64,000 nucleotides of DNA from Longimicrobiales bacterium (GTDB lineage: Bacteria; Gemmatimonadota; Gemmatimonadetes; Longimicrobiales; Gaopeijiaceae): NCBI GenBank assembly GCA_965226375.1, contig CBDDCX010000007.1, forward strand, positions 32,001 to 96,000, written 5' to 3'. The translations under genes were made by a program, and so were the position numbers. Each line of letters opens with the position of its first letter. The stretch's first letter is position 1. Shown here piece after piece: positions 5,686-62,134 of the stretch. The notes below the pieces were generated by a model, which was not told the origin of the DNA, ran no database searches, and saw only the letters and a list, made by a program, of their open reading frames with translations.

Positions 5686-7271
5686 TTGACTCATTCGGAA
5701 CCTGCCCCGGTGAACACGCCGGCCCCCGGCTCTGCGGCCGATCTTCCCATCACGTACAACGCCGCCGACATCCTCGAGCGAAACGTCGCCCGTCATCCAC
5801 ACAAGGATGCGCTCCACACGGAGGACGGGGTGCTCACCTTCCAGGCCGTATCCGAGAGCGCCAACCGGGTCGCGCACGCCTTGAGTGCCATGGACGTCCA
5901 GGTCGGAGATTGTGTCGCCATCCTTTGCCTCGACACTGCCGAGTGGGTAGCCACGTTTTCGGTACGCTGAAGTGCGGAGGAGTCGCGGCGGGCATGAGCA
6001 CGCTGCTGACGCCAGGCGAGATCGGGCTCATCCTCAACGACAGCCGGGCAAGGGTGATCGTGGTGCATTCCGTGCTCCTGGCCGGACTTCAGGAGGTGCG
6101 CCCCGAATGTCCGTGCCTCGAACACGTGATCGTCGTCGGCGGGGACGCGCCCCACGGAGATGAGGCGTTCGAGGAATGGGTCGACGGGCAGTCGTCTACG
6201 TTCGAAACCGCTTCCACGCAACGCGACGACCACGCCACCCTCAATTACTCCAGCGGTACGACGGGCAAACCGAAAGGCATACTACACGCTCACAAGGACC
6301 TGGTGCTCACCGCGGAACTCTGGGGGGCCAGGACGCTGGGTCTGACCGAGTCCGACCGGACCTTCTCACTGGCCAAGCTGTTTTTCACCTTCGGCCTCGG
6401 GGGCAACCTGCTCTTTCCTTGGCATGTGGGCGCGTCGGCCGTCCTGTACTCGGGGAGCCCGCGCCAAGCGACCAACGTTCTGGCGGTCATCGATCGCTTC
6501 CGCCCCACCATTCTGTTCAATGCACCCACGGGCTACGCCTCCGCCCTGGCGGTGGACGATCTCACCGATCGCTACGACCTGTCCTCGCTGCGCCTGTGCG
6601 TGTCGGCGGCGGAAGCCCTTCCCGCACCCTTGTGGCAGGCCTGGAAGGACCGGACGGGCCTCGACATCCTCGACGGCATCGGGTCGACGGAGAACTTCCA
6701 CATCTTCCTGTCCAACCGCCCGGGAGATATCCGTCCCGGCAGCTCCGGCAAGCCTGTCGAGGGCTACGAGATGCGCATCGTGGACGAGGACGGCTCACCG
6801 GTTCCGCTCGGGGAGGTGGGCAACCTCCACGTGAAAGGCGAGACGGCCGCTCGCTCCTACCTGAACGATGCGGAGCGGAGTCGTGAGAGCTTTCTGGGAG
6901 ATTGGCTCAACACGGGGGACAAGTACTACGAGGACGAGGACGGGTACTTCTGGCACGCGGGGCGGTCCGACGACATGCTCAAGGTCGGAGGCATCTGGGT
7001 CTCGCCGGTAGAGGTGGAGAGTACCCTGATCGGCCACGACGCCGTGTTGGAATGTGCCGTAGTTGGTATCGCCGACGACGCCGGTCTCATCAAGCCCAAA
7101 GCTTTCGTGGTGCCTGCTCCCGGCTTCGAACCTTCGGAGGAGACGGCCGAGACCCTGGTGCGGCACTGCACGGACTCCATGTCGGCCTACAAGCGGCCTC
7201 GCTGGATCGAGTTTCTCGAGGAGCTGCCCAAGACCGCGACGGGGAAGATCCAACGCTTCAGGCTGCGTTGA
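5686..7271 (+). CDS. Benzoate-CoA ligase family aryl-CoA ligase, frameshifted at ~5958 (T-run)
   Basis: N-terminus (YNAADIL..WVATF) is in ORF 5686-5970 and the rest in ORF 5658-7271. Motifs YSSGTTGKPKG, AKLFFTFGLGGNL, DGIGSTE, GRSDDMLKVGGIWVSP, LPKTATGKIQRF. Confidence 0.85.
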
Positions 7272-7284
7272 GCTTGATCTCACC

Positions 7285-10616: not shown

Positions 10617-10658
10617 GGGCCGTCGGTCCCGCAGGCATGCGGCCAAGCCGCCGCCGCC

Positions 10659-12755
10659 TCAGCGCCCCTGGGGCTGACCGTCCTCCGTTGACGGAATATC
10701 CAACGGGATCTCGATGTCTTCGTCCCAGATGTACTTCAAGAACCACTGCCAGTTGTGCCATAGCCCTCCCAAGCGCTGCTTGAGAGGACCCACACCGTGG
10801 GTCCGGCCCGGATAGATCACGAAGCGGTTCTCCACGCCCAAGTCCTGGAGAGCGTGTTGGAGCTCGTAGGCGTTCAGAACCGTCACGACCGGATCACCAT
10901 CCACATGCTGAATCAGCGTCGGTGTCGATGCGTTGTTGATGTAGGTGATGGGCGACGCCACGGCATACGCATAGGCATCTTCCCAAGGCGCGGCATCGAA
11001 GGAATAGAAACGAGTGGTGTAGCTGCCTGGCTCCCAAGCATAGTGCGTCCGCCAATCCGTGATGCCGGCTCCCACCGACACAGCCTTGAACGCTTTGCTT
11101 GTTGCCGTGAGGTAGGCGGAGATGAACCCGCCGTAGCTCCACCCCATCACACCCACGCGGTCACCGTCCACCAATCCCTCGGCCACCAGATGCGCCACCC
11201 CAGCCTCCACGTCGCCCGCGTCACCCCAGCCCACACCGCGGTGGTGCAACTGGCGGAACTCGCCACCCCACCCCGTGGAGCCCCGATAGTTCGGCTGGAG
11301 TACCAGGGCGCCCTTCCGGAGGAAGTGGGTGACCGGGTACACGCCCGACGAGGTCAACGTCAGTCCCGGGCGGGACACCGCGCGAGGACCACCGTGCACC
11401 ACTACCAACAGCGGATACCGCATGCCGGGCTCGTAGCCGTCCGGCTTGTGCAGGATGCCCTCGATGGGCACTCCGCCGGGCCCGGTCCAGGAGACCACCT
11501 CGCGGGAGCCCAGTTGCCAGCCCTGCACTTGGTCGGTCATGTCGGTGAGCGATCGTGGGTCGAACACGGCAAGGTCGGACCGATAGATCTCACCTAGGCG
11601 GGTGGGAGTCTGCGCGGAAAACGCCACCGTAGATCCGTCGGCCGAGACGCTCGCCTGGCCGACCAGCAGCGGTGTCTCACTGATTTGGGTGATCTCAGCG
11701 TCGGTCACGTCCACCCGGAAGAGATGGCTCTGCACACCTCGGAGCGCGGTCAGCCAGATACCATCCTCCGTCCAGGCCACCGGGTTGGGCTCGGTAGGGA
11801 GGTCGCCGGTCAGCACACGAAGCGTTCCGCCGTGGGCGGGCACCACCGTCAACTCCATGGGCAGGTTGGTGATGCTGTCCGAGAGGGTGGAGAGGAACGC
11901 GACACTCCGGCCGTCGGGTGACCACATCGGCCGCCTGTCCGGTCCGGCCTCGGATACGAGCGGCCGGGTCCGGCCACTCGCCACGTCCACCACCGACAGG
12001 TCGGCCTTCCACCAGGAGTTCCGACCCGGATCCATAAGGTGCACAAAAGCGATCTCCGACCCGTCGGGGGACCAGGCCAGCTCGGTGACCGTGAAGTCCC
12101 CGCTGGTGAGTCGCCTCGGCGGACCGTCACCGGTCATGGACGTCACCCACAGCTGCGAGCGCCGTGACTCCTCGTCGCGGAAGTTGAATGGCCCATATAG
12201 CTCCTGCTCCCGGCGATCCCTTTCGGACAGGGGCTCCCGGGCAAGAACAGCGACGGCGCTCCCATCTGGAGAAAAGCGGTAGGTACCGGCCCCCGGGACG
12301 CCTAGCTCCACCGTGCGGCTGCTCCCGCCATCCGGGGAGAGCAGCTTGAGGGCAGGTGTGTCGCCAGAGGCACGGCAGGCCAGCCATCGGCCGTCGGGAG
12401 TCCACTGGACCGAACTACGGCACCCGTCCGCCTCCGTCGCGATGCGCACCGGGGTCTCGTCACCCTCGGCGATCCAGAGTTCCGATACGGATCGATTCTG
12501 CTCCCAATCCGGGATGCGGAGCGTGTAGGCCACCCACTGTCCATCGGGACTGATGGCGGGGCTGCCGACCGACCGAAGGCTCAGCATGTCTCTGAAGGTG
12601 GGTCCGGCCGGCAGGCCGGGGTCGACGGCAACCGTCGCGCCCGATTGGGCCGCCAGGGGAACCGCCGTTGAAACCCAAGCAAGGGTCAGGACCAGAAGGG
12701 CCAGAAGCCGTCCACCGGTGGATGCCGGCAACGTTGGACACTTGGAATAGCTCAT
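10659..12755 (-). CDS. Secreted S9 family peptidase (TolB-like propeller + alpha/beta hydrolase)
   Basis: Repeated WSPDG motifs, VHGGP, NYRGSTG, GWSYGG nucleophile, D(PVV), H(GRTHG). Confidence 0.93.
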   Translation of the reverse strand: MSYSKCPTLPASTGGRLLALLVLTLAWVSTAVPLAAQSGATVAVDPGLPAGPTFRDMLSLRSVGSPAISPDGQWVAYTLRIPDWEQNRSVSELWIAEGDETPVRIATEADGCRSSVQWTPDGRWLACRASGDTPALKLLSPDGGSSRTVELGVPGAGTYRFSPDGSAVAVLAREPLSERDRREQELYGPFNFRDEESRRSQLWVTSMTGDGPPRRLTSGDFTVTELAWSPDGSEIAFVHLMDPGRNSWWKADLSVVDVASGRTRPLVSEAGPDRRPMWSPDGRSVAFLSTLSDSITNLPMELTVVPAHGGTLRVLTGDLPTEPNPVAWTEDGIWLTALRGVQSHLFRVDVTDAEITQISETPLLVGQASVSADGSTVAFSAQTPTRLGEIYRSDLAVFDPRSLTDMTDQVQGWQLGSREVVSWTGPGGVPIEGILHKPDGYEPGMRYPLLVVVHGGPRAVSRPGLTLTSSGVYPVTHFLRKGALVLQPNYRGSTGWGGEFRQLHHRGVGWGDAGDVEAGVAHLVAEGLVDGDRVGVMGWSYGGFISAYLTATSKAFKAVSVGAGITDWRTHYAWEPGSYTTRFYSFDAAPWEDAYAYAVASPITYINNASTPTLIQHVDGDPVVTVLNAYELQHALQDLGVENRFVIYPGRTHGVGPLKQRLGGLWHNWQWFLKYIWDEDIEIPLDIPSTEDGQPQGR

Positions 12756-48372: not shown

Positions 48373-49221
48373 ATGGCCGCACGCCCGATTTCAACGTCGA
48401 CCATCTCGTTCGGATTGGTCTCCGTGCCGGTAAAGCTTTATGCCACCGGGGAATCCAAGTCCAAGATCTCGTTCAACATGGTCCACAAGGACTGTGGAAC
48501 GCGCGTAAAGCAGCAGTACATCTGCCCCAAGGACGACGTGATCGTCCCCCGCGAGGACATGGTGAAGGGGTACGAGTTCGCCAAGGGTCAGTACGTGCTC
48601 TTTACCCCGGAGGAACTCAAGGCGGTAGAGCAGCCCAAGACCGACTCGATTCAGATCACCGAGTTCGTTCCGGCAGACCAGGTGGATCGCCTGTTGCTGG
48701 ATCGGGCCTATTACCTCGGACCCGACAAGGGGGGTACTCGGGCATATCTGCTCCTCTCAGCGGCCCTGCAGGAAACCGAACGAGTGGCCATCGCCAAGTA
48801 CGCGACTCGCGGCAAGCAGTATCTGGTCATGGTGCGACCCTTCGGAGAAGGTCTTCTCCTGGAGCAGCTGCGCTACGCCGACGAGGTCCGAGACTTCGCC
48901 GACGTGCCCATCGAGGAGGGCGAGGTGAGCGAATCTGCGCTCAAGCTCGCAACGCAGCTGGTGGCTCAGGCTTCCTCAGACGAATTCAAGGCCGAGGTCT
49001 ATAAGGACGAGGTCCGGGATCGAATGCTGGAGCTCATTCAGCAGAAAGTCGACGGCGAGGAGATCGTTTCATCGATCACGGAAGAGCCGCAGACGCAGAT
49101 CATCGACCTGATGGCGGCTCTCAAGGCCAGCCTCTCCGATGAGGGTGAGGAGAGGAAGCCGGCCAAGAAAGCATCCAGCAAGAAGAAGACCTCCGCCAAG
49201 AAGAAGGCGTCCTCCGGCTGA
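48373..49221 (+). CDS. ku: NHEJ Ku protein
   Basis: ISFGLVSVPVKLY, KGYEF.KG.YV, I.EFV, YYLGP, IIDLMAALKASL, Lys-rich tail. Confidence 0.96.
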   Translation: MAARPISTSTISFGLVSVPVKLYATGESKSKISFNMVHKDCGTRVKQQYICPKDDVIVPREDMVKGYEFAKGQYVLFTPEELKAVEQPKTDSIQITEFVPADQVDRLLLDRAYYLGPDKGGTRAYLLLSAALQETERVAIAKYATRGKQYLVMVRPFGEGLLLEQLRYADEVRDFADVPIEEGEVSESALKLATQLVAQASSDEFKAEVYKDEVRDRMLELIQQKVDGEEIVSSITEEPQTQIIDLMAALKASLSDEGEERKPAKKASSKKKTSAKKKASSG

Positions 49222-49293
49222 CCGACCAGGTCCTGAGCCAACGCCCGCCCCTCGGCGTCTGATGGAGAACCTGCCCGAATCGGAAGCGGGGAG

Positions 49294-50112
49294 ATGAAGG
49301 GATACACCACCCGGCAAGTGGCCGAGATCCTCGGCATCCCAGTCGCCCGTGCGCGCTCGATCGCCAGGTCCGGGTTCTTCGATCCAGCGAGAGGCCCTCG
49401 CAACGAATACCGGTTTTCCTTTTCGGACATCATCCTGCTCCGCACCACCCGAGACCTCAGGGATGCCGGCGTTTCCATGCAGCGGGTGGGCGGGGTCCTC
49501 CATGCGCTCCGGGAAAAACTTCCGAAAGGTGAGCCCCTGAGCGCCCTCCACATCATGTCAGACGGGGACACCGTGGTCGTGAAGGAAGAGAGCACCGTCT
49601 GGGATCCACAGTCCGGCCAGGTCCATCTCGATTTCTCCGTCAGCGAGTTGGCCGCAAAGGTCGAGCCCATCGCAAGGGCCGTGGGCTCCCACGTGTCGTC
49701 GGTCGACCTGGGCGCGGACGAGTGGTACGACCTGGCGTTGGACCTGGAGCCGGTTGCGACCGACCGTGCCACGGACGCGTACCGACGGGCTCTCGCGCTC
49801 AACCCGGGGCACATAAGGGCCCACCTGAACCTCGGCCGGCTGCAGCATGAGGCGGGAGAGGTCGAGTCGGCCGAGGCGCACTATCGGCAAGCGCTAGCGG
49901 CCAATCCCGATTCGGCGACGGCGGCGTTCAACCTGGGAGTAGCCCTTGAAGATCTCGGGCGCGTGTCCGAAGCGATCGACGCATACGAGAGGGCGCTCCG
50001 CTCGGAGCCGGACATGGCTTCGGCGCACTACAACCTGTCGCGTCTCTACGAGGCGGAGGGGCGGTCCAAGGAGGCACTGCGACACCTGGCGGACTATAAG
50101 CGGCTGGTGTAG
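49294..50112 (+). CDS. MerR-like HTH + TPR repeat protein
   Basis: YTTRQVAEILGIP..F.PARG..YRFSFSDI..LR..L...GVS (MerR HTH), SGQVHLDF linker, TPRs (AHLNLG, AAFNLGVALED, AHYNLS). Confidence 0.88.
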   Translation: MKGYTTRQVAEILGIPVARARSIARSGFFDPARGPRNEYRFSFSDIILLRTTRDLRDAGVSMQRVGGVLHALREKLPKGEPLSALHIMSDGDTVVVKEESTVWDPQSGQVHLDFSVSELAAKVEPIARAVGSHVSSVDLGADEWYDLALDLEPVATDRATDAYRRALALNPGHIRAHLNLGRLQHEAGEVESAEAHYRQALAANPDSATAAFNLGVALEDLGRVSEAIDAYERALRSEPDMASAHYNLSRLYEAEGRSKEALRHLADYKRLV

Positions 50113-50118
50113 TCCGCC

Positions 50119-51337
50119 CTACTTCGCCACCCGGTTCCGCCCAGCTTTCTTCGCCCGGTACAAGGCCTTATCCGCCGCCTTCACGACCGCCTCGGGTGTT
50201 GCCGCCTTCTCCGTGCGCTCGGCCACACCAATACTCACGGTCACCGAGAGGCGCCGTGGGGATCTCTTCTTCGCTTTCTTGCCTGAGGCACTCTTTACGG
50301 GCGGTTTCTTCCGGGGCCGCCCGATCCGCCGAACCGCGAACCGGCTCGCCTCGATCCTCTCCCGCAACTCCTCGAGGTGAGGCAACACGTCCTCCCGGCT
50401 CTTTCCCGGGAACACCACCGTGAATTCCTCCCCACCGTAGCGAAAGGCCCGTCCACCCCCACTCACCTTGCCGAGTTGCCCGCCCACGAGCCGAAGCACC
50501 TGATCGCCGACGTCGTGTCCGTGGCGATCGTTGAATTTCTTGAAGTGGTCCACATCGACCATGGCCACCGCATACGAGCGTCCGGCCGAGTCGATCTCCT
50601 GCCACAAGGCTCTCCGGGCGGGGAGCCCTGTAAGTTCGTCCCGGAAGGCCATCGCGTAGGACGTCTCGACCACGGCCAGGGCCAGCACGAGGGCGCCCGC
50701 CTTGAGGTGCACCGTGGACTCCACGGAGTCGGCCCCGTGGCCGAGTGCGAAGAGCACCGCGATCGTCGTCCAGAACAGTCCCTTTTCTACGGGGTGGTCT
50801 CTGCGGATCGCCATCCCCAGTGTGGTCAGAATTACCAATGACCCTACCACGACCGCCCCGTTGGAGAGGCCGAGCCAGTCGGGAGGAACCCCGGGGAGGA
50901 ACGGTGTCCCACGTCCAGGTGAGTGTCTCGGGCCGGACATTCCAGAGGACCAGCCCGACGGCCATGGTCGCGGCCACGAAGATCGGTTGGAGCCCACCCA
51001 GTCCCGAAAAGACTCCGCGGTCCTTCAGAATCGACAGAGCACCGAGTGCGAGTAGCAGGATGATGCCGGCCGTACCCCACGACGATCCGAAAACCGAGCT
51101 GACAACCCCGGGATCGATCGTGGTGCAGGTCACGGCCGACGGCTCTCCGACGAATGGACGCGGCAGAGCGGGTCCGTACCCGGCGGGACGTACAAACCAT
51201 TCCAGGAGGATGAGACCCAGCAGCACGGCCCCTACCCTGCTGCGCCGGAATCGCCAGGCTAGAAGAAGGCCACCCGCGAAGATGACAAGCGGATATCTAT
51301 CGACGGCCTGCTCCAGCCACGGGGCGTCTCCCGCCAT
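50119..51337 (-). pseudogene. Membrane diguanylate cyclase (GGEEF), frameshifted at ~50910
   Basis: The TM N-terminus is in ORF 50168-51337. The continuation (AFRDELTGL, DVDHFKKFND.HGH.VGD, RYGGEEF, SIGVA, ADKALYRAK..GRN) is in ORF 50119-50997. The start may lie further upstream. Confidence 0.8.
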
Positions 51338-51396
51338 CGTGGTGAGCGCGATCCCGGAGAGGACCAGGATGGCGCCGGGCCAGACCCAGCCGACGA

Positions 51397-52197
51397 CTAT
51401 CCGCTCGACATCCGGTCGAGGAAGGCCCGATCCTCTAAGGACAGGTCCTTCGCTCCCTCACGGTCGACCCTTTTCAGGAGCTCTTCCACCTCACCTCGAT
51501 TGAGCTCGTGGATGCCAGCGAGGTCGATAGAAGACCAGCGGGCGCGGGCCTCTCGATCGGAGCCGTCCATGGACGGAGTATGCTGGGTCCGGCGCTTGAA
51601 CTCGCGCTTGTCCTTGCCCGTGTGCCAGTCGCGCCAACGCAGATATCCCGCTCCCACGGCAAGTCCACCCAGGTGCGCGAAGTGGGCCGTGCCGCCACCC
51701 GTTCCGGCGATGCCGCTGTAGAGGCTGATCAGGACGAGACCCACAGCCAGCACCCTCGCCTGAATCGGTAGGATGCCCCAGATGTAGATGTTTTCCCTCG
51801 GCCAGTACATGGCGAACCCGATGAGAATTCCGTACACGGCGGCTGAAGCACCGACCACGGGGGCGCTGAACGAGAACAGAAAGGAGAACGCCGCCCCGCC
51901 GAGCCCACCCAGAAAATAGAGCCATAAGAAATCCCGCGCGCCCAGTCGACCCTCCAACCTGGGGCCGAAGCAGAAAAGCCCGATCATGTTGAAGAAGAGG
52001 TGCCCCATGCCCGCGTGGAGGAACATGTAGCTGACCAAACCCCACGGCCTGAACGGCATCGCGGGAAGGTAGAATCGGTCCATGCCAACCACGGCCGGCG
52101 GAAAGAGCGTCAACATGGCGTACAGAAGCGTCCCCGGCTGAATCAAAAGGAAGACGAGGACGTTCGCGACGAGCAGCCGCTTAACCCAAGGGGTCAT
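51397..52197 (-). CDS. Rhomboid family intramembrane serine protease
   Basis: YMFLH..HLFFNM, VGASAA (Ser), AHFAHLGG (His). Confidence 0.94.
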   Translation of the reverse strand: MTPWVKRLLVANVLVFLLIQPGTLLYAMLTLFPPAVVGMDRFYLPAMPFRPWGLVSYMFLHAGMGHLFFNMIGLFCFGPRLEGRLGARDFLWLYFLGGLGGAAFSFLFSFSAPVVGASAAVYGILIGFAMYWPRENIYIWGILPIQARVLAVGLVLISLYSGIAGTGGGTAHFAHLGGLAVGAGYLRWRDWHTGKDKREFKRRTQHTPSMDGSDREARARWSSIDLAGIHELNRGEVEELLKRVDREGAKDLSLEDRAFLDRMSSG

Positions 52198-52324: not shown

Positions 52325-53491
52325 CTAACGCACCACCTCTCCCAGCACCCCCACGGCCTCCCGCAGCTGGTCGTCCGTGAGGTACGGAGCGGGACCGAAG
52401 CGAAGTACCTCGCCGCGATAGTCTGTCAGGACTCCACGCGTGCCCAACGCCTGGCACAGCTCACCGGCCCCCGGGGCACGCAACGCTAGAAATCCCGCCA
52501 CTCCCTCCAACGGCACCGAGCGATCTCGGTCGACCACGGCCGGGTCGAGATCGAGGCTATCGAACGCCTCCATGAGGAGTCCGACCTGGTGCTGGCTCCG
52601 CTCCCGAAGGCGCTCCTGGGTGAGCCCCTGCGACGCGAAGAACTCGAGCACGGACGCCGCCCGATAGTGGCTCGTGGGGTCGTAGGTGGATCCCGCGAAG
52701 AGCGCGGCCCCTTCGCCGTAAGCCGTTCGACCCGAATCCTTGTCGTCGGCCAGTGTGGCGAACTCGCTGAACCAGCCGGTGATGACCGGCCGGAAGCGGC
52801 AGCCGTCCGGAAACCGCATCCAGCAGTTCCCCTCGCCCATCTGCATGTACTTGTAGCCACCACCCACCACGAAGGCGCATGCGAGCTCCTCTGTCCCGAT
52901 CGAATAAGGCACCACGTTCGTCGAGTGGTACACGTCGATCAGAAGCTCGACTCCCAACGACTCGCATACTTCGTGCACGCCTCCGAGGCCGGGCACGATG
53001 TGCGCGTTCTGGAAGAGTACGCACGACGCCAGGACAGCCGCCGTGCGGTCGTCGACAGCCGCGATCAGCCGCTCAGCGAGTGTGGCCGCGGGGAACGCCG
53101 GCACCTTCACCAACTCCACGGGCTCTTCCGCCAGCCGATCGAGTTGCCGCCGGATGGTGTGGAACTCGCCATCGGTGGTGACCAGGCGGGGACGTTCCAG
53201 AAAGGGAAGGGCCGAGAGGAAACGGGTCACGAGCTCGTGTGTGTTCTGCCCCAAGGCCACCTGCCCCGCGGGATCATCGAGCAGCGCCGCCACACCACCC
53301 CGGAGCCGTTCCGCCTTTTCCTCCGCGAGGTCCCACTTCCGGTCCACGTGCTCTGCCGCGTCGAGCCACGCCTGCTGTTGGGCCTCGAAGGCGACGTCGG
53401 GCCAGGCCTGGTGTGAGTGTCCCGTAAGGAGCAGCCGCTCCGAGACCCGGAAGCGGGTGTAGTGCCCGGCGAGCGCCGCGGAGTCGATCAC
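52325..53491 (-). CDS. kynU: Kynureninase (class V PLP enzyme)
   Basis: TGHSHQ, TDGEFH, DVYHS, GGGYKY (PLP Lys), TGWF, LRFGPAPY. Located 1 bp downstream of the TDO gene. Confidence 0.88.
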   Translation of the reverse strand: MIDSAALAGHYTRFRVSERLLLTGHSHQAWPDVAFEAQQQAWLDAAEHVDRKWDLAEEKAERLRGGVAALLDDPAGQVALGQNTHELVTRFLSALPFLERPRLVTTDGEFHTIRRQLDRLAEEPVELVKVPAFPAATLAERLIAAVDDRTAAVLASCVLFQNAHIVPGLGGVHEVCESLGVELLIDVYHSTNVVPYSIGTEELACAFVVGGGYKYMQMGEGNCWMRFPDGCRFRPVITGWFSEFATLADDKDSGRTAYGEGAALFAGSTYDPTSHYRAASVLEFFASQGLTQERLRERSQHQVGLLMEAFDSLDLDPAVVDRDRSVPLEGVAGFLALRAPGAGELCQALGTRGVLTDYRGEVLRFGPAPYLTDDQLREAVGVLGEVVR

Positions 53492-53492
53492 T

Positions 53493-54281
53493 CTAGAGCC
53501 GACTGCGGATCGCCCACAGGTCCTCGAAGACCGGCGCGTTGAGCGTCGTCCGCAGGTAGGCCGATCCGGCGGAGCCTCCGGTCCCTGCCTTCATGCCGAT
53601 GGTGCGCTCGACCATCTTCACGTGCCGGTACCGCCATTCCTGTAGGCCCTCGTCCAAATCCACCAGTCGCTCGCACACCGAAGCCGCGGCGGGGCTTTCC
53701 CGGTACACCGTCACGAGGACCTCCTGAAGATCCTCTGAAGCAGCGACCGACTGCGTGACATCTCGGCTCAGCTGGGCCTCGGGAACCGGGAACCCCTCAC
53801 CGTGAAGGAACGTGAGAAAAGCGTCCCAAAGCGTGCGCTCTGCGAACCGCCGCTCCAGGTTCACCCGGCCGTCACTTCCCTCCGGAAAACGTTGGATGGC
53901 CTTTTCGTTCTTGGCCCCGAGCACATACTCCAACTCCCGGAACTGATAGGACTGGAAGCCCGACGCCGCCTCCAACCGGGCCCTGAAAGACAGGAACTCG
54001 AGGGGAGTCATCGTCTCCAGAATGTCGAGTTGTGCGACCAGGACCTTCAGGATGGTGAGTACCCTCTTGAGCGTGTGGAGCGCACGAACGGAATCACCCT
54101 CCTCCAACAGTCGGCAGACATAATCGACCTCGTGTAGGACTTCCTTGAACCAGAGCTCGTAGACCTGATGGATGACGATGAAGAGCATCTCATCGTGCTC
54201 GGGCCCCTCGGAAAGGGGCTTCTGAAGGTCCAGCAGCTCCTTGATCTTCAGGTAGCGGCCGTACGTGAGGGCTTCGCTCAT
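53493..54281 (-). CDS. kynA: Tryptophan 2,3-dioxygenase
   Basis: Y..YL..LL.LQ, HDEMLFIVIHQVYELWFK, SGFQS.QFR, WRYRH..VER.IG.K.GTGGS.G..YL. Confidence 0.96.
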   Translation of the reverse strand: MSEALTYGRYLKIKELLDLQKPLSEGPEHDEMLFIVIHQVYELWFKEVLHEVDYVCRLLEEGDSVRALHTLKRVLTILKVLVAQLDILETMTPLEFLSFRARLEAASGFQSYQFRELEYVLGAKNEKAIQRFPEGSDGRVNLERRFAERTLWDAFLTFLHGEGFPVPEAQLSRDVTQSVAASEDLQEVLVTVYRESPAAASVCERLVDLDEGLQEWRYRHVKMVERTIGMKAGTGGSAGSAYLRTTLNAPVFEDLWAIRSRL

Positions 54282-56581
54282 GCCGTGGCTCCGAAGTCGA
54301 AGGCGAAGCGAGCCGTATAGCGGCTCACAGACTCGTATTGGCTGGGCCACTCCAGATCATGGCCCATCGTGTAAGCGGCGTGTCGGGTCCAATAGGGATC
54401 GAAGAGGTGGGCCCGGGCAAGCAGGCAGAGGTCGGCACGGCCGGCCGCCAGAATCGTGTTCACGTCCATGAAGGACGAGATGTTGCCCACAGCCATGGTG
54501 GCGATGCCCACCTCGTGCCGAATACGGTCGGCGAATGGCGTCTGGAAGAGCCTCCCGTACTCAGGGGCTTGATCGGGCACCGTCTGCCCTGCCGACACGT
54601 CGACGACGTCGCAATCGTGTGCCTTTAGCAGGCGCGCCACCTCCACCGCGTCGCCCGGCTCCATGCCTCCGGGCTTCCAATCCACCGCACTGATGCGGGC
54701 CGACATGGGCCGCTCGGCCGGCCATGCCGCGCGCACCGCGTCGAATACTTCCAACGGGAAACGCAGGCGGTTCTCGAGACTCCCGCCGTACTCGTCGTCT
54801 CTCTCGTTGGTGAGTGGCGAGACGAAGGAAGCCAGGAGGTATCCGTGCGCCAGGTGCAATTCCAGGATGTCGAAGCCGGCCTCGTGGGCCATGTCGGCTG
54901 CGCGAACGTAGTCGGCGATGGCGGCTGACATGTCCTGCCGCGTCATCTCCTTCGGTACGGGATTCTCAGGCCGCCAGGGAATGGGCGACGCCGAGATCAC
55001 GTCCCAACCTCCCTCGGCCAGGGGTTCGTTATCGCCATCCCAGAGCTTTTGCGTAGACGCCTTTCTGCCCGCATGACCGAGCTGGATCCCAACCTTGGCG
55101 ACACTGCTCCCGTGGATGAAATCCACGATCCGCTTCCAGCCGCCCACATGCTCGGGTTTGTAAAGGCCCGTACATCCCACGGAGATTCGCGCGTCCCGAC
55201 TGACATCAGTCATCTCGGCCATGACGAGCCCTGCCCCACCCAGCGCGCGGCTTCCCAAATGCACCATGTGCCAATCATTCGGCATCCCGTCCTCGGCCGT
55301 GTACTGACACATGGGGGAGACCACGACACGGTTGGAGAGGACGAGGTCCCGTAGTTTGAATCCCGTGAACATGGGTGGCGGCGGCGGAACGGTGCGCACC
55401 GCTACACCGCTCTGACGCTCGGCCGCGGCCGCGAACCACGTGTCCACGTCACGGATGAAACCGGCGTCTCGAAGCCGCAGATTCTCGTGTGTGATGCGGA
55501 GGCTACGGGTGAGGAGCGTAAACGCGAACTGGATCGGCTCCAGCCGCATGTAGCGCTCGGCGTCCTCGAACCACTGAAGGCTCGCCTGTGCCGCACGCTG
55601 CAGACTCTCCACGGGCGCGCGCCGTTCACCTTCGTAGGCCGCGAGCGCGGCAGCCACGTCAGGCTCGCGCGCCATGGCCTCCGTGAGCGCGATCCCGTCC
55701 AACATGGCGATGCGCGTGCCGGACCCTACGGAGAAGTGCGCCGTATGTGCCGCATCCCCCATGAGGACGACGTTCTCATGAGACCAGACTTCGTTTCTCA
55801 CCGTCGGAAACTGCCGCCAGTGCGACCGGTTCTTCAGGAGTGGATGCCCCTGGAGCTCGTCCGCGAAGAGCTCCTCGCAGAAGCGGACCGTGGCGTCCTC
55901 GTCCTCCTCGGTGAGGCCCGAAGCCGCCCACGTTTCCTCGCGAGCCTCCACGATGAAGGTGGCCTTGCCGTTTTCATATTGGTACGCGTGGACGCGCCAC
56001 CATCCGTGCTCGTTCTCCCGGAAGTAGAACGTGAACGCGTCGAAGGGCCTGGTCGTCCCGAGCCAAACGAAGCGGTTCGGGCGAAAGTCCAGAGAGGGCC
56101 GGAAATGCTCCTCGTAGCGCTCTCGGATCTGGCTGTTCACACCGTCGGCTGCGAGCACCAAGTCGGCATCCCGGTAGACCTCTACGTCATCCACCTCCGC
56201 CTCGAAGTGGACTGCGATGCCCAACACCTCGGCGCGCCTCTGCAGGATCTGGAGAAGCCTCGGTCTCGAGAGGCCGGCGAACCCGTGACCGCCGGACCTG
56301 AGAACCTTGCCCCCGTAGTGGATGTCGATGTCGTCCCAGTGTGCGAACGCATCAGTGATCTCACGGTAGACATGAGGCTCGGCGCCCCCGATCTCAGCCA
56401 GGGTGGCGTCCGAGAACACGACCCCGAAACCGAAGGTGTCATCGGGCCGGTTCCGCTCGTAGACGGTGATCTCGCGAGACGGCCCGGCACCCTTCAGAAG
56501 AATGGCCGCGTACAGGCCAGCGGGCCCTGCCCCGACGACGTTGATCTTGCTCGCCGGAACTCCTCCATCGGATCCGCTCAA
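54278..56581 (-). CDS. abmA: Anthraniloyl-CoA monooxygenase/reductase (bifunctional salicylyl-CoA 5-hydroxylase/oxidoreductase family)
   Basis: N-terminal FAD monooxygenase (GAGPAG, DDTFGFGVVFSD, GDAAHTAHFSVGSGT) fused to an Old Yellow Enzyme domain (SPMCQY, QLGHAGRK, HLAHGYLL, R.DEYGG). TTGA start overlap is inferred. Confidence 0.92.
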   Translation of the reverse strand: MSGSDGGVPASKINVVGAGPAGLYAAILLKGAGPSREITVYERNRPDDTFGFGVVFSDATLAEIGGAEPHVYREITDAFAHWDDIDIHYGGKVLRSGGHGFAGLSRPRLLQILQRRAEVLGIAVHFEAEVDDVEVYRDADLVLAADGVNSQIRERYEEHFRPSLDFRPNRFVWLGTTRPFDAFTFYFRENEHGWWRVHAYQYENGKATFIVEAREETWAASGLTEEDEDATVRFCEELFADELQGHPLLKNRSHWRQFPTVRNEVWSHENVVLMGDAAHTAHFSVGSGTRIAMLDGIALTEAMAREPDVAAALAAYEGERRAPVESLQRAAQASLQWFEDAERYMRLEPIQFAFTLLTRSLRITHENLRLRDAGFIRDVDTWFAAAAERQSGVAVRTVPPPPPMFTGFKLRDLVLSNRVVVSPMCQYTAEDGMPNDWHMVHLGSRALGGAGLVMAEMTDVSRDARISVGCTGLYKPEHVGGWKRIVDFIHGSSVAKVGIQLGHAGRKASTQKLWDGDNEPLAEGGWDVISASPIPWRPENPVPKEMTRQDMSAAIADYVRAADMAHEAGFDILELHLAHGYLLASFVSPLTNERDDEYGGSLENRLRFPLEVFDAVRAAWPAERPMSARISAVDWKPGGMEPGDAVEVARLLKAHDCDVVDVSAGQTVPDQAPEYGRLFQTPFADRIRHEVGIATMAVGNISSFMDVNTILAAGRADLCLLARAHLFDPYWTRHAAYTMGHDLEWPSQYESVSRYTARFAFDFGATA

Positions 56582-57732
56582 GAACCTTCTCGTCTCGACT
56601 TCAGGCGATGGCCCGCAATGATCAAGTGCTGGATGTCGGTGGCTCCTTCGTAGATGCGCAGCGCCCGGACGGAGCGGTAGAGCCGATCCACCACGGCATC
56701 GGCAAGGACGCCGCGCCCCCCCAGGATCTGGATGGCATCGTCTACGACACGCTGGGCCGCCTCGGTTGCGTAGGCTTTGGCCATGGCCGCCTCGACGGTG
56801 ATGCGCTCGGCACCGCCGTCCCGCTCCCACGCCGCCCGATATGTCAGAAGACGTGCGGCCGTGAGTTCGGTAGCCATACGCGCAAGCTTCTGCTGAACGA
56901 GCTGGAAGTCGGCCAGTACCTGCCCGAACTGTCTCCGCGACAGAGCGTAAGCCTCGGCCTCATCCAGAGCTCGTGCCGCCATTCCACACGCCGCCGCGGC
57001 CACCGTGGGCCGTAAGCGATCGAACGTGGCCATGCCGAGCTTGAAGCCCTCGCCCTCCGCGCCGAGGCGCGCCTCTTCCGGAAGCCGACAGCCGTGGAAG
57101 GCTATCTCCCCCAGGGGGTGAGGAGCGCTCATCACCAGAGGCTTCACGAACTCCAGACCGTCCGTGTCCGCGGGAACGACGAACGCCGACAGGCCCCGAC
57201 TCCCCTGCTCCGGATCGGTGGAGGCGAAAACCACGTAGACATCGGCGATACCGGCGTTGGAGATGAGCGTCTTGGTCCCCTCGAGCACGTAGCCTGCACC
57301 GTCCCGGACCGCGGTCGTGCGCATCGACGCCACATCGGATCCGGCCTCCGGTTCGGTCATCGCGAACGCCCCCAAGCTCGTGCCATCGAGAAGCTTCGGG
57401 AGCCACTTCTCACGCTGGCCGAGGTTGTCGGCGAGCAGAAAAGGCGTAGCCGTAAGCGCCTGCAGGGCATAGACGGCGTCGGCCAGGGGACTCGCGCCCG
57501 CGATCGCTTCCCGAGCCAGACACGCGCCTCTCAGGTCCTCTTCCTCTACGGGCCGTAGCCATCCGCCTGCGCCGAGCAAGGCCACGATCTCCCGGGCCTG
57601 CACCCGGCCAGCATCATCGTCGACCGGCACGGGAAGGGGGTCCAATGTGCTCGCGACGAACGCCTCGACCGCCCCGGCCCACTCCACATGGACGTCATCG
57701 AAGAAGGCCCTCACGGCCTGGACGTCGAGCAT
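56578..57732 (-). CDS. Acyl-CoA dehydrogenase
   Basis: AFAMTEPEAGSDV, G.KTLISNAG, R.QFG..L..FQ, Q..GG.G, RIYEGATDIQ. Confidence 0.95.
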   Translation of the reverse strand: MLDVQAVRAFFDDVHVEWAGAVEAFVASTLDPLPVPVDDDAGRVQAREIVALLGAGGWLRPVEEEDLRGACLAREAIAGASPLADAVYALQALTATPFLLADNLGQREKWLPKLLDGTSLGAFAMTEPEAGSDVASMRTTAVRDGAGYVLEGTKTLISNAGIADVYVVFASTDPEQGSRGLSAFVVPADTDGLEFVKPLVMSAPHPLGEIAFHGCRLPEEARLGAEGEGFKLGMATFDRLRPTVAAAACGMAARALDEAEAYALSRRQFGQVLADFQLVQQKLARMATELTAARLLTYRAAWERDGGAERITVEAAMAKAYATEAAQRVVDDAIQILGGRGVLADAVVDRLYRSVRALRIYEGATDIQHLIIAGHRLKSRREGS

Positions 57733-58541
57733 CAAATGAACCGGGCGGACCGCTTCTCGGTGAAGGCCTCGTATGCCTCCCGGAAGTTCGGGTTTTCCAT
57801 ACATTTCGCCTGGACCTGCGCCTCGGCCTCCAGGGCTGTCGCAAGATCCATCGAAGCCTCTTCGTTGAGCGCACGCTTGGTCATCTCCAGGGCGTAGGAC
57901 GGGCCGAGCGCCAACTTCCCGGCCATCCCCCGTGCCACATCGAGCAAATCGTCCTGCGGCACCACCTGGTTGTAAAGGCCGATCCGATGCGCCTCTTCGG
58001 CACCGATAAAGTCGCCCGTCATGAGCAACTGGCTGGCGTGCGCCAACCCGACGATGCGCGGCAAGAGCCACGCGACCCCCATGTCGGCACCGGACAGACC
58101 GACCTTTGTGAACAGATATGCGATCTTGGCGTTGTCGCTCGCAATACGGATGTCACACGCCGTGGCGATGACCGCACCGGCACCGGCGACCGTGCCGTTC
58201 AGAGCCCCGATGACCGGACGGCGGCACTGCCTGATGGCCAAGATCAGGTCGCACGTCATCCGGGTGAAGTCGAGGAGTCCTTCGGCGTCCCGCTCGAAGA
58301 GGGCGCCGATGATGTCCTCTACGTCTCCTCCCGTGCAGAATGCCCGGCCCGCCCCGGTGATGACGATGGAGCGCACGCCCGGTTCCACATCGAGAGCGCG
58401 GAACGTAGCCTGCAGCTCCTCGTAGACTTCGAACGTGAGGGCGTTCAGGCGCTCCGGTCGATTGAGCGTGATGGTGGCGACGGAAGTGTCGGTATCGTGC
58501 TCGTACAGGAAGGATGTCGGTCGGATCGGCACTCCACTCAC
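57732..58541 (-). CDS. Enoyl-CoA hydratase/isomerase family protein
   Basis: LNRPERLNAL, GRAFCTGGDV, G..AGAGA..A..CDIR, F.KVGLSGADMG. Confidence 0.94.
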   Translation of the reverse strand: MSGVPIRPTSFLYEHDTDTSVATITLNRPERLNALTFEVYEELQATFRALDVEPGVRSIVITGAGRAFCTGGDVEDIIGALFERDAEGLLDFTRMTCDLILAIRQCRRPVIGALNGTVAGAGAVIATACDIRIASDNAKIAYLFTKVGLSGADMGVAWLLPRIVGLAHASQLLMTGDFIGAEEAHRIGLYNQVVPQDDLLDVARGMAGKLALGPSYALEMTKRALNEEASMDLATALEAEAQVQAKCMENPNFREAYEAFTEKRSARFI

Positions 58542-58942
58542 CCGGGTAATATGGCGGTGGCCTCGATCTCGACCTTGGCCCTGGGATCCACCATCTCGGA
58601 CACGGCGACGAGGGCCATGGCCGGATAGTGCCGGCCCATCCGTTCGCGGTACTTGGCTCCAAGGGGCTTCAGGCTGCCCCTGTACTCGGCCATGTCCGTC
58701 ACGAAGATCGTAAGGCGGGCGACGTTCTCCGGACCCCCGCCCGCCTCTTCGACTACCGTGATCGACCGGGCGAGAGCCGCATCGAACTGCTCGACGAAGT
58801 CGTCCGAGACGATGGCTCCGGTGTGATCTGATCCGGCTTGCCCCGCCACGAAGAGGACCCGACTACCGACCGGCGCGAGAAGTCCGTTGGACCATCCCCT
58901 CGGTTCGCCCAGCGATTCGGGATTAAAGATCTCGAAGGTCAT
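58538..58942 (-). CDS. RidA/YjgF family protein (lacks the RidA catalytic Arg; YPAM motif)
   Basis: PRGWSNG, FVAGQ, GRHYPAMALV.V, VEIEATA. Confidence 0.9.
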   Translation of the reverse strand: MTFEIFNPESLGEPRGWSNGLLAPVGSRVLFVAGQAGSDHTGAIVSDDFVEQFDAALARSITVVEEAGGGPENVARLTIFVTDMAEYRGSLKPLGAKYRERMGRHYPAMALVAVSEMVDPRAKVEIEATAILPG

Positions 58943-59011: not shown

Positions 59012-59788
59012 CTACGCCAGAAGTGCTCCTCCGTCGATTACCAGGGCCTGTCCGTTCACGCTCCCGGCATCCTCCCCACACAGGTAGAGCACCGCATCGC
59101 CGACCTCACCCGGCTCCACCAGGCGCTTCTGCGAGAGCGTGCCCAACATGGCTGCCAGGGCGTCATCCCGGGTCATGCCGGATCGGGCCATGATCTGCCC
59201 GACCGTGCCCTCCGTCATCGGCGTATTGACGTAGCCGGGGCACAGCGCGTTGACGGTGACCCCGGTGCCGGCCATCTCGGCCGCCGCGGAGCGGGTCATG
59301 CCCAGCACCGCGTGCTTGGACGCGGCGTACGCCGACGTGTAGCGGCTGCCGACACGCCCGGCCACGGACGCCACGTTGACCACCCGCCCCCAACCCCGCT
59401 CGATCATGCCGGGAAGGAAGGCGCGGGCGCACAGGAAGGACCCGGTGGCGTTCACTGCCATAGTGCGGTTCCAGTCGTCCAGGGTTTCGCGAACCAAGAG
59501 GGCCGAGTGGCCCACCCCGGCATTGTTCACCAGGATGTCTACGCTCCCCAGAGTGTCTACGGCCGTATGTTCGAGCTCGGCCACCGAGGTTTCGTCCGCT
59601 ACGTCGCAGAGGGCCCAGTGGCCGGATCCGCCCGCCGCGCCGATCGATTCCGCCACCGCACGGACTTGATCCTCCGTGCGCGCGCTCACCAAAACAGTCG
59701 CTCCGGCATTCGCCAGCATGTGCGCGACTGAAGCACCGATGCCCCGTCCGCCTCCGGTTACGACCGCGGTCTTGCCTTGAAGACTCAC
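59012..59788 (-). CDS. SDR family oxidoreductase (3-hydroxyacyl-CoA dehydrogenase-like)
   Basis: TGGGRGIG, NNAG, YAASK, CPGYV.T. Confidence 0.94.
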   Translation of the reverse strand: MSLQGKTAVVTGGGRGIGASVAHMLANAGATVLVSARTEDQVRAVAESIGAAGGSGHWALCDVADETSVAELEHTAVDTLGSVDILVNNAGVGHSALLVRETLDDWNRTMAVNATGSFLCARAFLPGMIERGWGRVVNVASVAGRVGSRYTSAYAASKHAVLGMTRSAAAEMAGTGVTVNALCPGYVNTPMTEGTVGQIMARSGMTRDDALAAMLGTLSQKRLVEPGEVGDAVLYLCGEDAGSVNGQALVIDGGALLA

Positions 59789-60561
59789 GATGTGGGCTGC
59801 TCCGTGTTTTCTGGGCTCAGAACGGACATGACCGCCTCCTCTACGAGTGTCCCCAGTGTCCTCAAGGTGGCCGCCCCCTCGTCCGCGCTGGCGTCAGCCG
59901 GGAAGCCGAAGTAGGCCTGCGGCCCACCCGACTCGTGGAACGTCGACAGGCCGTCCCGGATCGCGTCCGACAACGACGCGGGATTGGGAGACAGCCCTTT
60001 CCGCACGTCCTCACGCACCAACTCCGGTGCCACGGCCATGACGATCGACGTCTCGTACTGACCGGCATGACACGCGCCCGACTGGAACTCCTCCGTGAGC
60101 TGGGCGGCCAAGACCCTCCTGGTCAGGTCCGGAAAGATGATGGGCAGGTTCACGGCATACGCCCGCTGCACGGCATCGCGAAGAGCAGCGAGATGAGCCG
60201 GATCCAGATGTGCGTTGCACAGCACGAGGGCCCGGGCCCCCTGGGCCGCCGAAGCCCGCGCCACATCTACCACCAGGCGCGTGACCGTCTCACGTGCCAC
60301 GGACACGGTACCTGGAAAGGACTCGGCAAAAGACGCCGGGGTGTAGTCGATGGTGGGTAGAATCACCGGATGCATGCCGCGGATCTCGAGCCTCTGGGCC
60401 GCCTCCTGGGCCCAGGCCTCCGCAATGATCCCGTCCGTACGTAGCGGCAAGTGCGGTCCGTGAGCCTCCACGGCGCCGAGGGGCAACAGCCCGATCCACG
60501 CATTCTTCTGCGCGTCTCGGGCCTCTTCCCAGGTCATCTCGGCTAGTGGACGGATCGGCAT
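59785..60561 (-). CDS. Creatininase/creatinine amidohydrolase family protein
   Basis: MTWEE, PLGAVEAHGPHLPLRTD, FPGTVS, NAH, HAGQYETS. AGGAG RBS; stop overlaps the SDR start. Confidence 0.92.
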   Translation of the reverse strand: MPIRPLAEMTWEEARDAQKNAWIGLLPLGAVEAHGPHLPLRTDGIIAEAWAQEAAQRLEIRGMHPVILPTIDYTPASFAESFPGTVSVARETVTRLVVDVARASAAQGARALVLCNAHLDPAHLAALRDAVQRAYAVNLPIIFPDLTRRVLAAQLTEEFQSGACHAGQYETSIVMAVAPELVREDVRKGLSPNPASLSDAIRDGLSTFHESGGPQAYFGFPADASADEGAATLRTLGTLVEEAVMSVLSPENTEQPTS

Positions 60562-60583
60562 AGATGCTCCTATCATCGGGCTC

Positions 60584-62134
60584 ATGACCACCACGTACCC
60601 CGAACAGTTCAATATCGCCGAGTACTTCCTCGATGCGCGCATCCAGGAGGGGCGCGGGGAGCGGATCGCCCTCCGCACGGATGCGGGTGACCTTACCTAC
60701 GTCGAGGTCCAACAGCTCGCCAACCGCTTCGGCAATGTGCTGCGAGCCGCTGGTGTCCAACCCCGGCAGCGGGTCATCGTCGCTGTGCCCGACGGCCCGG
60801 AATTCGTGGCGGCCCTCTTCGGGGTGCTCAAGATCGGCGCGGTGGTTGTGATGGTCAACCCGGACCTGAAGGCGGACGCCATCGAGTATTTCTACCGCTA
60901 CACGGGCGCGGCTGTCGCCCTGATCCACGCCGATACGGCGGTCCCGTTTCAGGAAGCAGCCGCTGGAGTCGAGACCCTCGAGCGGCTGCTGGTGGTAGGA
61001 GGCGACGAGTTCGAGACGACACTGAACGAAGCGTCCACGGAGATCGAGAACTTTCCTACAGGCCGAGACGACGCTGCCATCTGGCTCTTCTCCGGCGGCA
61101 CCACGGGTCAGCCGAAAGCCGTGGTGCAACCCCATCGCTCCTTCGCCAACACGACGGAGTGCTACGCAAAGGGGCATCTCGGCTATACGGAGGACGACAT
61201 CACCCTGTCTGTGCCGAAGCTCTACTTCGGGTACGCCACCGGGTCCAATCTGCTCTTTCCGTTCTCCGTGGGCGCGTCGGCGGTTCTCTTTCCCGAACGT
61301 TGCCTGACCGATGTCCTATTCGAGAAGATCCGGCGCTTCCGGCCCACCATCCTCATCAACGTGCCCACCATGGTGAACCACATGGTGAGTCACGCGGACG
61401 CGAACACCTACGACCTATCATGCCTGAGGTTGGCGTCATCGGCGGGCGAGGCGCTTCCCATGGAGCTCCACCGTCGGTGGAACGACATGTTCGGTATCGA
61501 CCTGCTGGACGGGCTCGGGACCGCCGAGATGTGGCACGTCTTCATCTCCAACAGACCCGGAGACGTGCGCCCCGGCACGCTCGGGACCATTGTCGAGGGA
61601 TTCGAGGTGATGGTCTGTGATCCCGACGGGAACGAGCTCGCCCCGGGTGAGGTCGGGCTGCTACGCGTCCGGGGGGACTCGCGAGCCATCGGCTACTGGG
61701 AGCAACCCGAAAAGACGCGAGAGGTCTTCCAAGGTCAGTGGTATCTGTCCAGCGACATGGTCAGCCGAGACGCAAAAGGGGTGTTCACCTATGTCGGTCG
61801 CTCCGACGACATGCTCAAGGTCTCCGGTAAGTGGCTGTCGCCCAAGGAGGTCGAGAACTGCCTTCTGCAGCACTCGGCCGTGGACGAATGTGCCGTGGTG
61901 GGGGTGGTGGACGGGGCGGGGCTCACCAAGCCGCACGCGTTCGTCGTGCGGGGGGAAGACTCCGCACATCGGCCGGATGGTGACCTGGCCACCGAGCTGC
62001 AAGTGCACGTGAAGGAGACGCTCGCCCCCTACAAATACCCCCGGCAGATCCACTTCATGGACGACCTGCCCCGGACGCACCTGGGCAAGGTCGATCGAGG
62101 CAAATTGCGGAGTGATACCTCTACGAAGGATTGA
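60584..62134 (+). CDS. Benzoate-CoA ligase family protein, probable anthranilate (2-aminobenzoate)-CoA ligase
   Basis: FSGGTTGQPK, PKLYFGY, SAGEAL, DGLGTAE, GRSDDMLKV.G.W.SP.EVE, LPRT..GK. Substrate is inferred from context. Confidence 0.9.
   Translation: MTTTYPEQFNIAEYFLDARIQEGRGERIALRTDAGDLTYVEVQQLANRFGNVLRAAGVQPRQRVIVAVPDGPEFVAALFGVLKIGAVVVMVNPDLKADAIEYFYRYTGAAVALIHADTAVPFQEAAAGVETLERLLVVGGDEFETTLNEASTEIENFPTGRDDAAIWLFSGGTTGQPKAVVQPHRSFANTTECYAKGHLGYTEDDITLSVPKLYFGYATGSNLLFPFSVGASAVLFPERCLTDVLFEKIRRFRPTILINVPTMVNHMVSHADANTYDLSCLRLASSAGEALPMELHRRWNDMFGIDLLDGLGTAEMWHVFISNRPGDVRPGTLGTIVEGFEVMVCDPDGNELAPGEVGLLRVRGDSRAIGYWEQPEKTREVFQGQWYLSSDMVSRDAKGVFTYVGRSDDMLKVSGKWLSPKEVENCLLQHSAVDECAVVGVVDGAGLTKPHAFVVRGEDSAHRPDGDLATELQVHVKETLAPYKYPRQIHFMDDLPRTHLGKVDRGKLRSDTSTKD

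Follow-up and report, generated by a model that had tools for sequence, protein, structure and literature searches.

The subject of this analysis is an operon in a 64,000-nucleotide stretch of DNA from a Longimicrobiales bacterium (contig CBDDCX010000007.1, positions 32,001 to 96,000), which is called the window below. The operon joins abm genes with kynA and a kynureninase-like gene, and its first gene encodes a creatininase-family amidohydrolase, referred to here as the hydrolase. The ends of its genes overlap or lie close together. An earlier note on this DNA had claimed that the operon lacks both KynB and an AFMID-type hydrolase, and profile scans agreed, with neither a cyclase nor an alpha/beta hydrolase among the operon genes. 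The operon and the adjoining ligase gene comprise the following features.

60584 to 62134, plus strand: aryl-CoA ligase, divergent, its start 22 bp from that of the hydrolase; predicted anthranilate-CoA ligase (TIGR02262 over cut-off, 4wv3, pocket motif).
59785 to 60561, minus strand: hydrolase, a creatininase-fold binuclear metal amidohydrolase, predicted N-formylanthranilate (aryl-formamide) deformylase (PF02633, ligand residues, fold match, co-occurrence).
59012 to 59788, minus strand: short-chain dehydrogenase/reductase (SDR), 3-hydroxyacyl-CoA dehydrogenase-like (profile matches); its start overlaps the hydrolase stop.
58538 to 58942, minus strand: RidA/YjgF family protein (PF01042).
57732 to 58541, minus strand: enoyl-CoA hydratase family protein (NF006107 over cut-off).
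56578 to 57735, minus strand: acyl-CoA dehydrogenase, start uncertain (PF00441, PF02770).
54278 to 56560, minus strand: AbmA-type 2-aminobenzoyl-CoA monooxygenase/reductase, start uncertain, frame open to 56830 (NF006101, 1134 bits, cut-off 1078).
53493 to 54281, minus strand: kynA, tryptophan 2,3-dioxygenase (TDO), the sole TDO of the genome, its ATG overlapping the abmA stop, frame open to 54350 (PF03301, E 8e-66).
52325 to 53491, minus strand: atypical kynureninase, designated KynU*, with GHSHQ for GNSLG, predicted to cleave N-formylkynurenine (PF22580 just over cut-off, 1qz9, motifs).

Positions 60562 to 60583 are all that lies between the start codon of the hydrolase gene and that of the divergent ligase gene, so that their promoters would lie inside the opposite genes or the transcripts would be nearly leaderless.

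The hydrolase is a real, intact, and widely conserved enzyme. Its open reading frame (ORF) begins with ATG and encodes 258 amino acids, of which residues 7 to 240 match PF02633 (Creatininase; E 7e-52; 176.6 bits compared to a cut-off of 31.3). The residues E32, H34, D43, H118, D120, H165, and E170 are all found, line up with the motifs of Pseudomonas putida creatininase, and do not vary across 44 of 44 aligned homologues, which were picked from the best 120 of 4885 matches. Those homologues that bear names indicate Gemmatimonadota. E32, H34, D43, H118, and E170 are presumably metal ligands, as in creatininase. Thus, the earlier note was right to describe an intact creatininase-family protein as the first product of the operon. 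The AlphaFold model of the hydrolase (predicted local distance difference test score, 91) has creatininase 3a6l as its top fold match (E 2e-15; template modeling [TM] score, 0.74). Although fold, metal motif, and about 23% identity are shared with P. putida creatininase (1j2t, 3a6l), the hydrolase scores far under the cut-off of that family (TIGR04448; 88 compared to 235 bits), has Asp at the position of E122, and has motifs of its own, EEFxSGACHAG and AYFGxP. It is likewise under the equivalog cut-offs of MftE (TIGR03964; 116 compared to 172 bits) and IolN (NF041098; 41 compared to 245 bits). No ArfB family match was found in the family-profile scan at E 0.001, and the neighboring genes are catabolic. 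There is no match to PF04199, the fold differs from the cyclase fold of KynB, and HxGTHxD is absent. In a quick tree, the hydrolases, including a sister group, form one group separate from the five other creatininase-family genes of the genome (support, 90).

Open frames of 600 to 840 codons in some genomes raised the possibility of a hydrolase-ligase fusion, which was rejected on the evidence of L024, where the long frame merely continues across the divergent ligase gene on its antisense strand. The same contig of L024 carries the hydrolase gene twice (1619 to 2350 and 10651 to 11394), 9 kb apart. A plasmid search gave no match.

The hydrolase, kynA, KynB, KynU*, and the ligase were searched for in a single sample of 251 source-phylum genomes. 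The hydrolase was found in 80 genomes, and G247, with a weak match from the sister group, was set aside, leaving 79 carriers. The sampled genomes are kin and not independent, and therefore no P value is given for co-occurrence. Three unpublished genomes are within the counts (G178, a carrier; G093, with TDO only; and G153, one of the 27 genomes with linked kynB described below), and no conclusion depends on them. The hydrolase and a ligase orthologue occurred together in 79 genomes, the hydrolase alone in none, and the ligase alone in 1; 11 genomes with only 40 to 46% identical ligase paralogues were excluded as orthologues. Both the hydrolase and KynU* were found in 77 genomes (hydrolase alone, 2; KynU* alone, 22; 99 genomes with KynU*), and the hydrolase and TDO also in 77 (hydrolase alone, 2; TDO alone, 78). 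With any KynB-like match the corresponding numbers were 10 for both, 69 for the hydrolase alone, and 75 for KynB-like alone. Among the 155 TDO genomes, 68 had only the hydrolase, 44 only kynB, 9 both, and 34 neither. A kynB gene within about 3 kb of kynA was seen in 27 genomes (read by eye and a lower bound), none of which has a strong hydrolase match or KynU*, and a kynA-linked kynB was found in 0 of the 79 carriers. Consequently, the co-occurrence with kynA that the earlier note had proposed as a check was found, as was an exclusion of kynA-linked kynB. KynB-like matches also occur in 32 genomes without kynA and are therefore no sign of tryptophan use. Five unlinked KynB-like genes inspected in carriers lie beside gluconate permease, thiolase, or unknown genes.

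The neighborhoods gave a similar picture. In 80 genome loci of the closest hydrolase homologues, many of them on short contigs, the ligase was found in 71, SDR in 70, AbmA in 49, a kynureninase in 37, TDO in 36, and kynB in none; the 30 loci with at least 9 kb on each side had the ligase in 27, AbmA in 26, a kynureninase in 21, and TDO in 20. Around KynU* in 80 metagenome loci, TDO was present in 66, the hydrolase in 14, and kynB in 0. There are abm clusters without the hydrolase (L118, L122, and L123), and in G123 (L344) such a cluster adjoins kynB-kynA instead, which indicates that the ring pathway is independent of the hydrolase. The possibility raised earlier that the subfamily tracks abmA in clusters lacking kynA was thus not what the carriers showed. 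Gene order varies: at L230 and L243 (150 to 11149) a rearranged cluster of abmA, hydrolase, ligase, SDR, hydratase, RidA, and dehydrogenase points away from the genes for a PaaX-like regulator, TDO (kynA), and KynU*, and at L043, L044, L048, L089, L090, L093, and L096 an old-yellow-enzyme-like gene is inserted directly before abmA.

Five cyclase-family genes are present in the source genome, and their best TIGR03035 score is 63 bits, compared to mostly 160 to 224 for the kynA-linked KynBs of relatives. Three have signal-peptide-like N termini (read by eye), and the remaining two are a pair in another, unrelated cluster. This pair (G000:C8:327451-329147) consists of tandem cytoplasmic genes, one with HRGTHMD and the other with the last Asp changed, has ABC transporter, SDR, and IclR-like genes as neighbors, and possibly encodes a heterodimeric hydrolase. 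A scan of 10,433 frames for the AFMID motif returned one ORF, with a signal-like N terminus. The genome-wide search for kynB and AFMID that had been proposed earlier therefore yielded no gene scoring near a real KynB, while candidates of both families exist; because the genome is 90% complete, the absence of KynB is not proven.

The kynureninases provide a further line of evidence. The earlier note had called the window gene kynU, and it is indeed kynureninase-like: its profile and structure model have Pseudomonas fluorescens kynureninase (1qz9) as best match, and the motif of the lysine that binds pyridoxal phosphate (PLP) is retained. However, it is not canonical. It is about 23% identical to the P. 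fluorescens enzyme, falls outside TIGR01814 with GHSHQ for GNSLG, and has no NCBIfam match and no phmmer match in PDB. Wherever a kynureninase adjoins the hydrolase in the 80 loci, it is atypical (GHSHQ in 33 loci, AHSHH in 4); the kynureninases next to kynB, seen in 6 loci, have the canonical GNSLG. A third clade, which matches 1qz9 at 2e-50, has SHSLG in eight hydrolase genomes (G251, G257, G342, G395, G404, G411, G435, and G471) and SNSLG in five kynA-kynB genomes (G010, G036, G090, G244, and G247); the motif of G468 is outside this tally, and G099 has a canonical kynureninase. G254 carries two sets, the hydrolase with KynU* and a KynB-like gene with SNSLG. In an unrooted tree of 43 rows made by a quick method, KynU* (support, 100) stands apart from the third clade (91), in which the His rows are grouped (88). 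Thus, in two separate clades, His before the conserved Ser goes with the hydrolase and Asn goes with KynB. Because canonical enzymes have Asn, His likely arose twice, each time alongside the hydrolase. According to a passage in PMC11329768, Ser75 of human kynureninase, the residue after the Asn/His position, contacts the carbonyl of the substrate, close to its aromatic amine. In N-formylkynurenine this amine would bear the formyl group, and it is possible, judging from the position of the motif, that the His of GHSHQ and SHSLG serves that group. NCBIfam misses or scores low the two large kynureninase-like clades (GHSHQ/AHSHH and SHSLG/SNSLG; for example, L306, L308, L310, L312, and L345 to L347). 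The source genome has a further kynureninase-like PLP enzyme with an NNCAQ motif (G000:C6:64871-66052), followed by a sodium-symporter-like membrane gene.

The best PDB match of the ligase is 4wv3, an anthranilate-CoA ligase, and its pocket motif consists of F-G-Y-x-x-G and H-V; the ligases adjoining the hydrolase have F-G-Y-A-(T/M/L)-G. For PqsA, a passage in PMC7593710 names F209, G210, Y211, M213, G214, H308, and V309. Because the F209-G210-Y211, G214, and H308-V309 pattern of PqsA is present, the substrate of the ligase is likely free anthranilate, which would place deformylation before the ligase. The pocket was also considered as a possible indication that the substrate is larger and still formylated, but PqsA shares this Gly and His-Val, and the idea was abandoned. 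In contrast to FGYA here, AbmG-like ligases have FTFG. A second aryl-CoA ligase paralogue (45% identity) lies at 5949 to 7280 of the window on the plus strand, with two TGA stops within the match.

Genomes that lack the hydrolase are informative about the order of the steps. Nineteen of the 251 genomes have TDO and KynU* without the hydrolase, ligase, or kynB, including G166, in which an abmA piece at a contig end probably reflects an assembly gap, and three with a broken or partial KynU* match. AbmA was found in none of the five single-contig genomes tested among them; cyclase genes are missing altogether from two of the five (G067 and G129), and the other three each have one of the signal-peptide type. 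By a simple counting method applied to pairs of hydrolase-less genomes only, the ratio of nonsynonymous to synonymous substitution (dN/dS) of KynU* was 0.12 to 0.21 in 15 pairs (six g2 genomes) and 0.17 to 0.21 in 3 pairs (three g3 genomes), and that of TDO was 0.02 to 0.27. Where tested, then, kynA and KynU* are under purifying selection without the hydrolase, ligase, or kynB, which argues that KynU* works without the hydrolase. A hydrolase acting between TDO and the kynureninase should be retained with both, and these 19 genomes therefore favor a later position. Most simply, N-formylkynurenine would be the substrate of KynU*, and the hydrolase would go together with the ligase. Synthesis of nicotinamide adenine dinucleotide as the reason for keeping kynA was rejected, with no 3-hydroxyanthranilate dioxygenase over the cut-off in 5 of 5 genomes tested, nor in 4 of 4 tested among these 19.

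The association extends beyond the source phylum. In a second-phylum sample of 141 genomes centered on an Acidobacteriota record, the hydrolase was found in 19, KynU* in 20, and both in 11; kynA is present in 17 of the 19 carriers, and in 6 of the 19 loci the hydrolase lies directly beside kynA (kynU-kynA-hydrolase or hydrolase-kynA-kynU*). Of the 8 carriers without KynU*, 5 have an abm operon with a third-clade kynureninase and kynA, and 4 of these 5 are arranged as kynU-kynA-hydrolase. All 12 hydrolase carriers in a mixed outside set have kynA. A further sample comprised 101 genomes centered on a deltaproteobacterial record. Sister hydrolases (37 to 45% identity) lie right behind a PqsA-motif ligase, co-directionally, in 5 of 5 loci (L125 to L129), in genomes that all have TDO and that gave no KynB match (0 of 5). 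Porticoccus sp. W117 (P0188) also has a sister member. In at least five phyla, the hydrolase has stayed linked despite several rearrangements.

These results suggest the following route. TDO would produce N-formylkynurenine, which the His-type kynureninase would cleave directly to alanine and N-formylanthranilate. The hydrolase would then act on free N-formylanthranilate, releasing formate and anthranilate, the divergent ligase would convert anthranilate to anthraniloyl-CoA, and AbmA with the beta-oxidation-like gene products would open the ring. We infer the substrate of every step. The hydrolase very probably supplies the missing deformylation, with N-formylanthranilate a likelier substrate than N-formylkynurenine, and we lean, with moderate confidence, toward the reordered sequence in which cleavage by the kynureninase comes before deformylation.

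Several observations weigh against this reading. The 22-bp gap means that one deletion removes both hydrolase and ligase, so their joint loss may reflect adjacency. KynU* occurs without detectable kynA in 2 of 99 genomes of the source phylum and in 4 of 9 hydrolase-less genomes of the second-phylum sample, and because of these six genomes KynU* may also persist outside kynurenine metabolism. Three of the 9 genomes of genus g2 retain kynA by itself, and retention does not therefore prove a full pathway. Of the 79 carriers, 10 also have an unlinked KynB-like cyclase; in the second-phylum sample, counting scores from 140 bits upward, this holds for 8 of the 19 carriers. The hydrolase is found without a kynA match in G366 and G413. 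In G247, kynA-kynB and an Asn-type kynureninase are accompanied by a hydrolase of the sister group. As 34 of 155 kynA genomes lack both hydrolase and kynB, unseen formamidases may exist. For 20 of these 34 genomes, 53 of the 145 ORFs neighboring kynA were scanned, and no replacement formamidase recurred among them; alpha/beta, GDSL, amidohydrolase, and other-creatininase genes turned up there as isolated cases.

Some of these genomes have features of their own. In four genomes without a kynA match (L319, L322, L290, and L294), KynU* lies directly behind a PPK2 gene, and an alternative dioxygenase beside KynU* was rejected on finding this neighbor. The hydrolase of G413 (L309, 4992 to 5711) is a lone divergent gene with Asn at the His118 ligand position. 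In G247 the sister hydrolase lies in a cluster of abmA, hydrolase, hydantoinase B, ligase, and hydantoinase A (L130, C22, 7300 to 14743), which may supply the same step starting from a different N-heterocycle.

The strongest rival is that the hydrolase is a direct, non-orthologous KynB that converts N-formylkynurenine to kynurenine before the kynureninase acts, as in the textbook order. The exclusion from genomes with kynA-linked kynB (0 of 27), the position directly beside kynA in 6 of 19 second-phylum loci, and the survival of KynU* in six genomes without a kynA match all fit it. However, the hydrolase is lost together with the ligase rather than with kynA and KynU*, 19 genomes retain the latter two without it, under purifying selection where tested, and the repeated change from Asn to His in the kynureninases would be left without a reason. 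We consider this order rather unlikely. The two deformylation readings may be compatible if the enzyme accepts N-formylkynurenine and N-formylanthranilate alike. In the interpretation of the earlier note, the missing-deformylation role holds up, fitting kynA in 77 of 79 carriers and the lack of any kynA-linked kynB; its direct N-formylkynurenine form is weaker than the N-formylanthranilate option.

Action of the hydrolase at the ligase step or later, with N-formylanthraniloyl-CoA, a cyclized benzoxazinone by-product, or a C-N bond downstream of AbmA as its target, is improbable. The ligase is its tightest partner (79 of 80), the pair persists co-directionally in the distant sister group, and creatininase opens a cyclic amide according to a passage in PMC9478397. 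On the other hand, abm clusters without the hydrolase exist, the hydrolase almost never occurs without kynA, the ligase pocket resembles that of PqsA, and deformylation would be unexplained unless the substrate were the formyl CoA ester. It seems very improbable that the hydrolase is a passenger or clean-up amidohydrolase for another substrate, with deformylation spontaneous or due to an unlinked cyclase or alpha/beta hydrolase, as the five cyclases, the AFMID-motif ORF, and the 34 kynA genomes with neither candidate might allow, given the linkage conserved across phyla, the exclusion with kynA-linked kynB, and the KynB-like matches in kynA-less genomes.

Other genes around the operon are ordinary neighbors. 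Downstream (48373 to 52197) are genes for Ku, a MerR-TPR protein, a GGDEF protein, and a rhomboid protease, and the ligase gene is followed by one for an S9 dipeptidyl peptidase (62131 onward).

KynB (PF04199, TIGR03035) is a binuclear metal hydrolase responsible for deformylation on the way from TDO to anthranilate, the role also predicted for the hydrolase. The hydrolase differs in its unrelated fold, in lacking HxGTHxD, in going with His-type kynureninases, and in a predicted substrate one step later; it would be arylformamidase-like in its working and a member of neither KynB nor AFMID. The creatininase family also includes ArfB. A passage in PMC9478397 describes archaeal ArfB and BrbF of Sinorhizobium (SMc02977), the latter creatininase-like, as formamide hydrolases of riboflavin synthesis. 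By that description they deformylate a formamide on an aromatic ring, as predicted for the hydrolase, but their substrate is a formylaminopyrimidine nucleotide, and no riboflavin genes were seen in the neighborhood loci of the hydrolase subfamily. The abm clusters of Azoarcus evansii, reportedly described by Schuhle in 2001 for the aerobic 2-aminobenzoyl-CoA route, are said to share AbmA, SDR, hydratase, acyl-CoA dehydrogenase, RidA, and CoA ligase with the window operon, whereas here these are joined with kynA, an atypical kynureninase, and the hydrolase. A side activity of kynureninase that converts N-formylkynurenine to formylanthranilate appears in pathway databases. To our knowledge, no dedicated genes for an N-formylanthranilate route are known, and a literature search, mostly without subscription papers, found no paper assigning the function of the hydrolase among the matches listed.

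Tentatively, we suggest a widespread third bacterial kynurenine route, in which dedicated kynureninases that gained His at the GNSLG motif twice, independently, would cleave N-formylkynurenine and a dedicated creatininase-fold N-formylanthranilate deformylase would be coupled to anthranilate-CoA ligase; genomes with only kynA and KynU* would harvest alanine and excrete N-formylanthranilate. If this is true, a pathway hole would be closed in about a third of the sampled source-phylum genomes (79 of 251) and also in Acidobacteriota, Myxococcota, Eisenbacteria, and Planctomycetota. Arylformamidases would gain a third fold, genes would be assigned to a route that until now has appeared only as a side reaction, and the label "creatininase" would be corrected for thousands of proteins. 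The Asn/His position would then serve as a one-residue predictor of pathway order.
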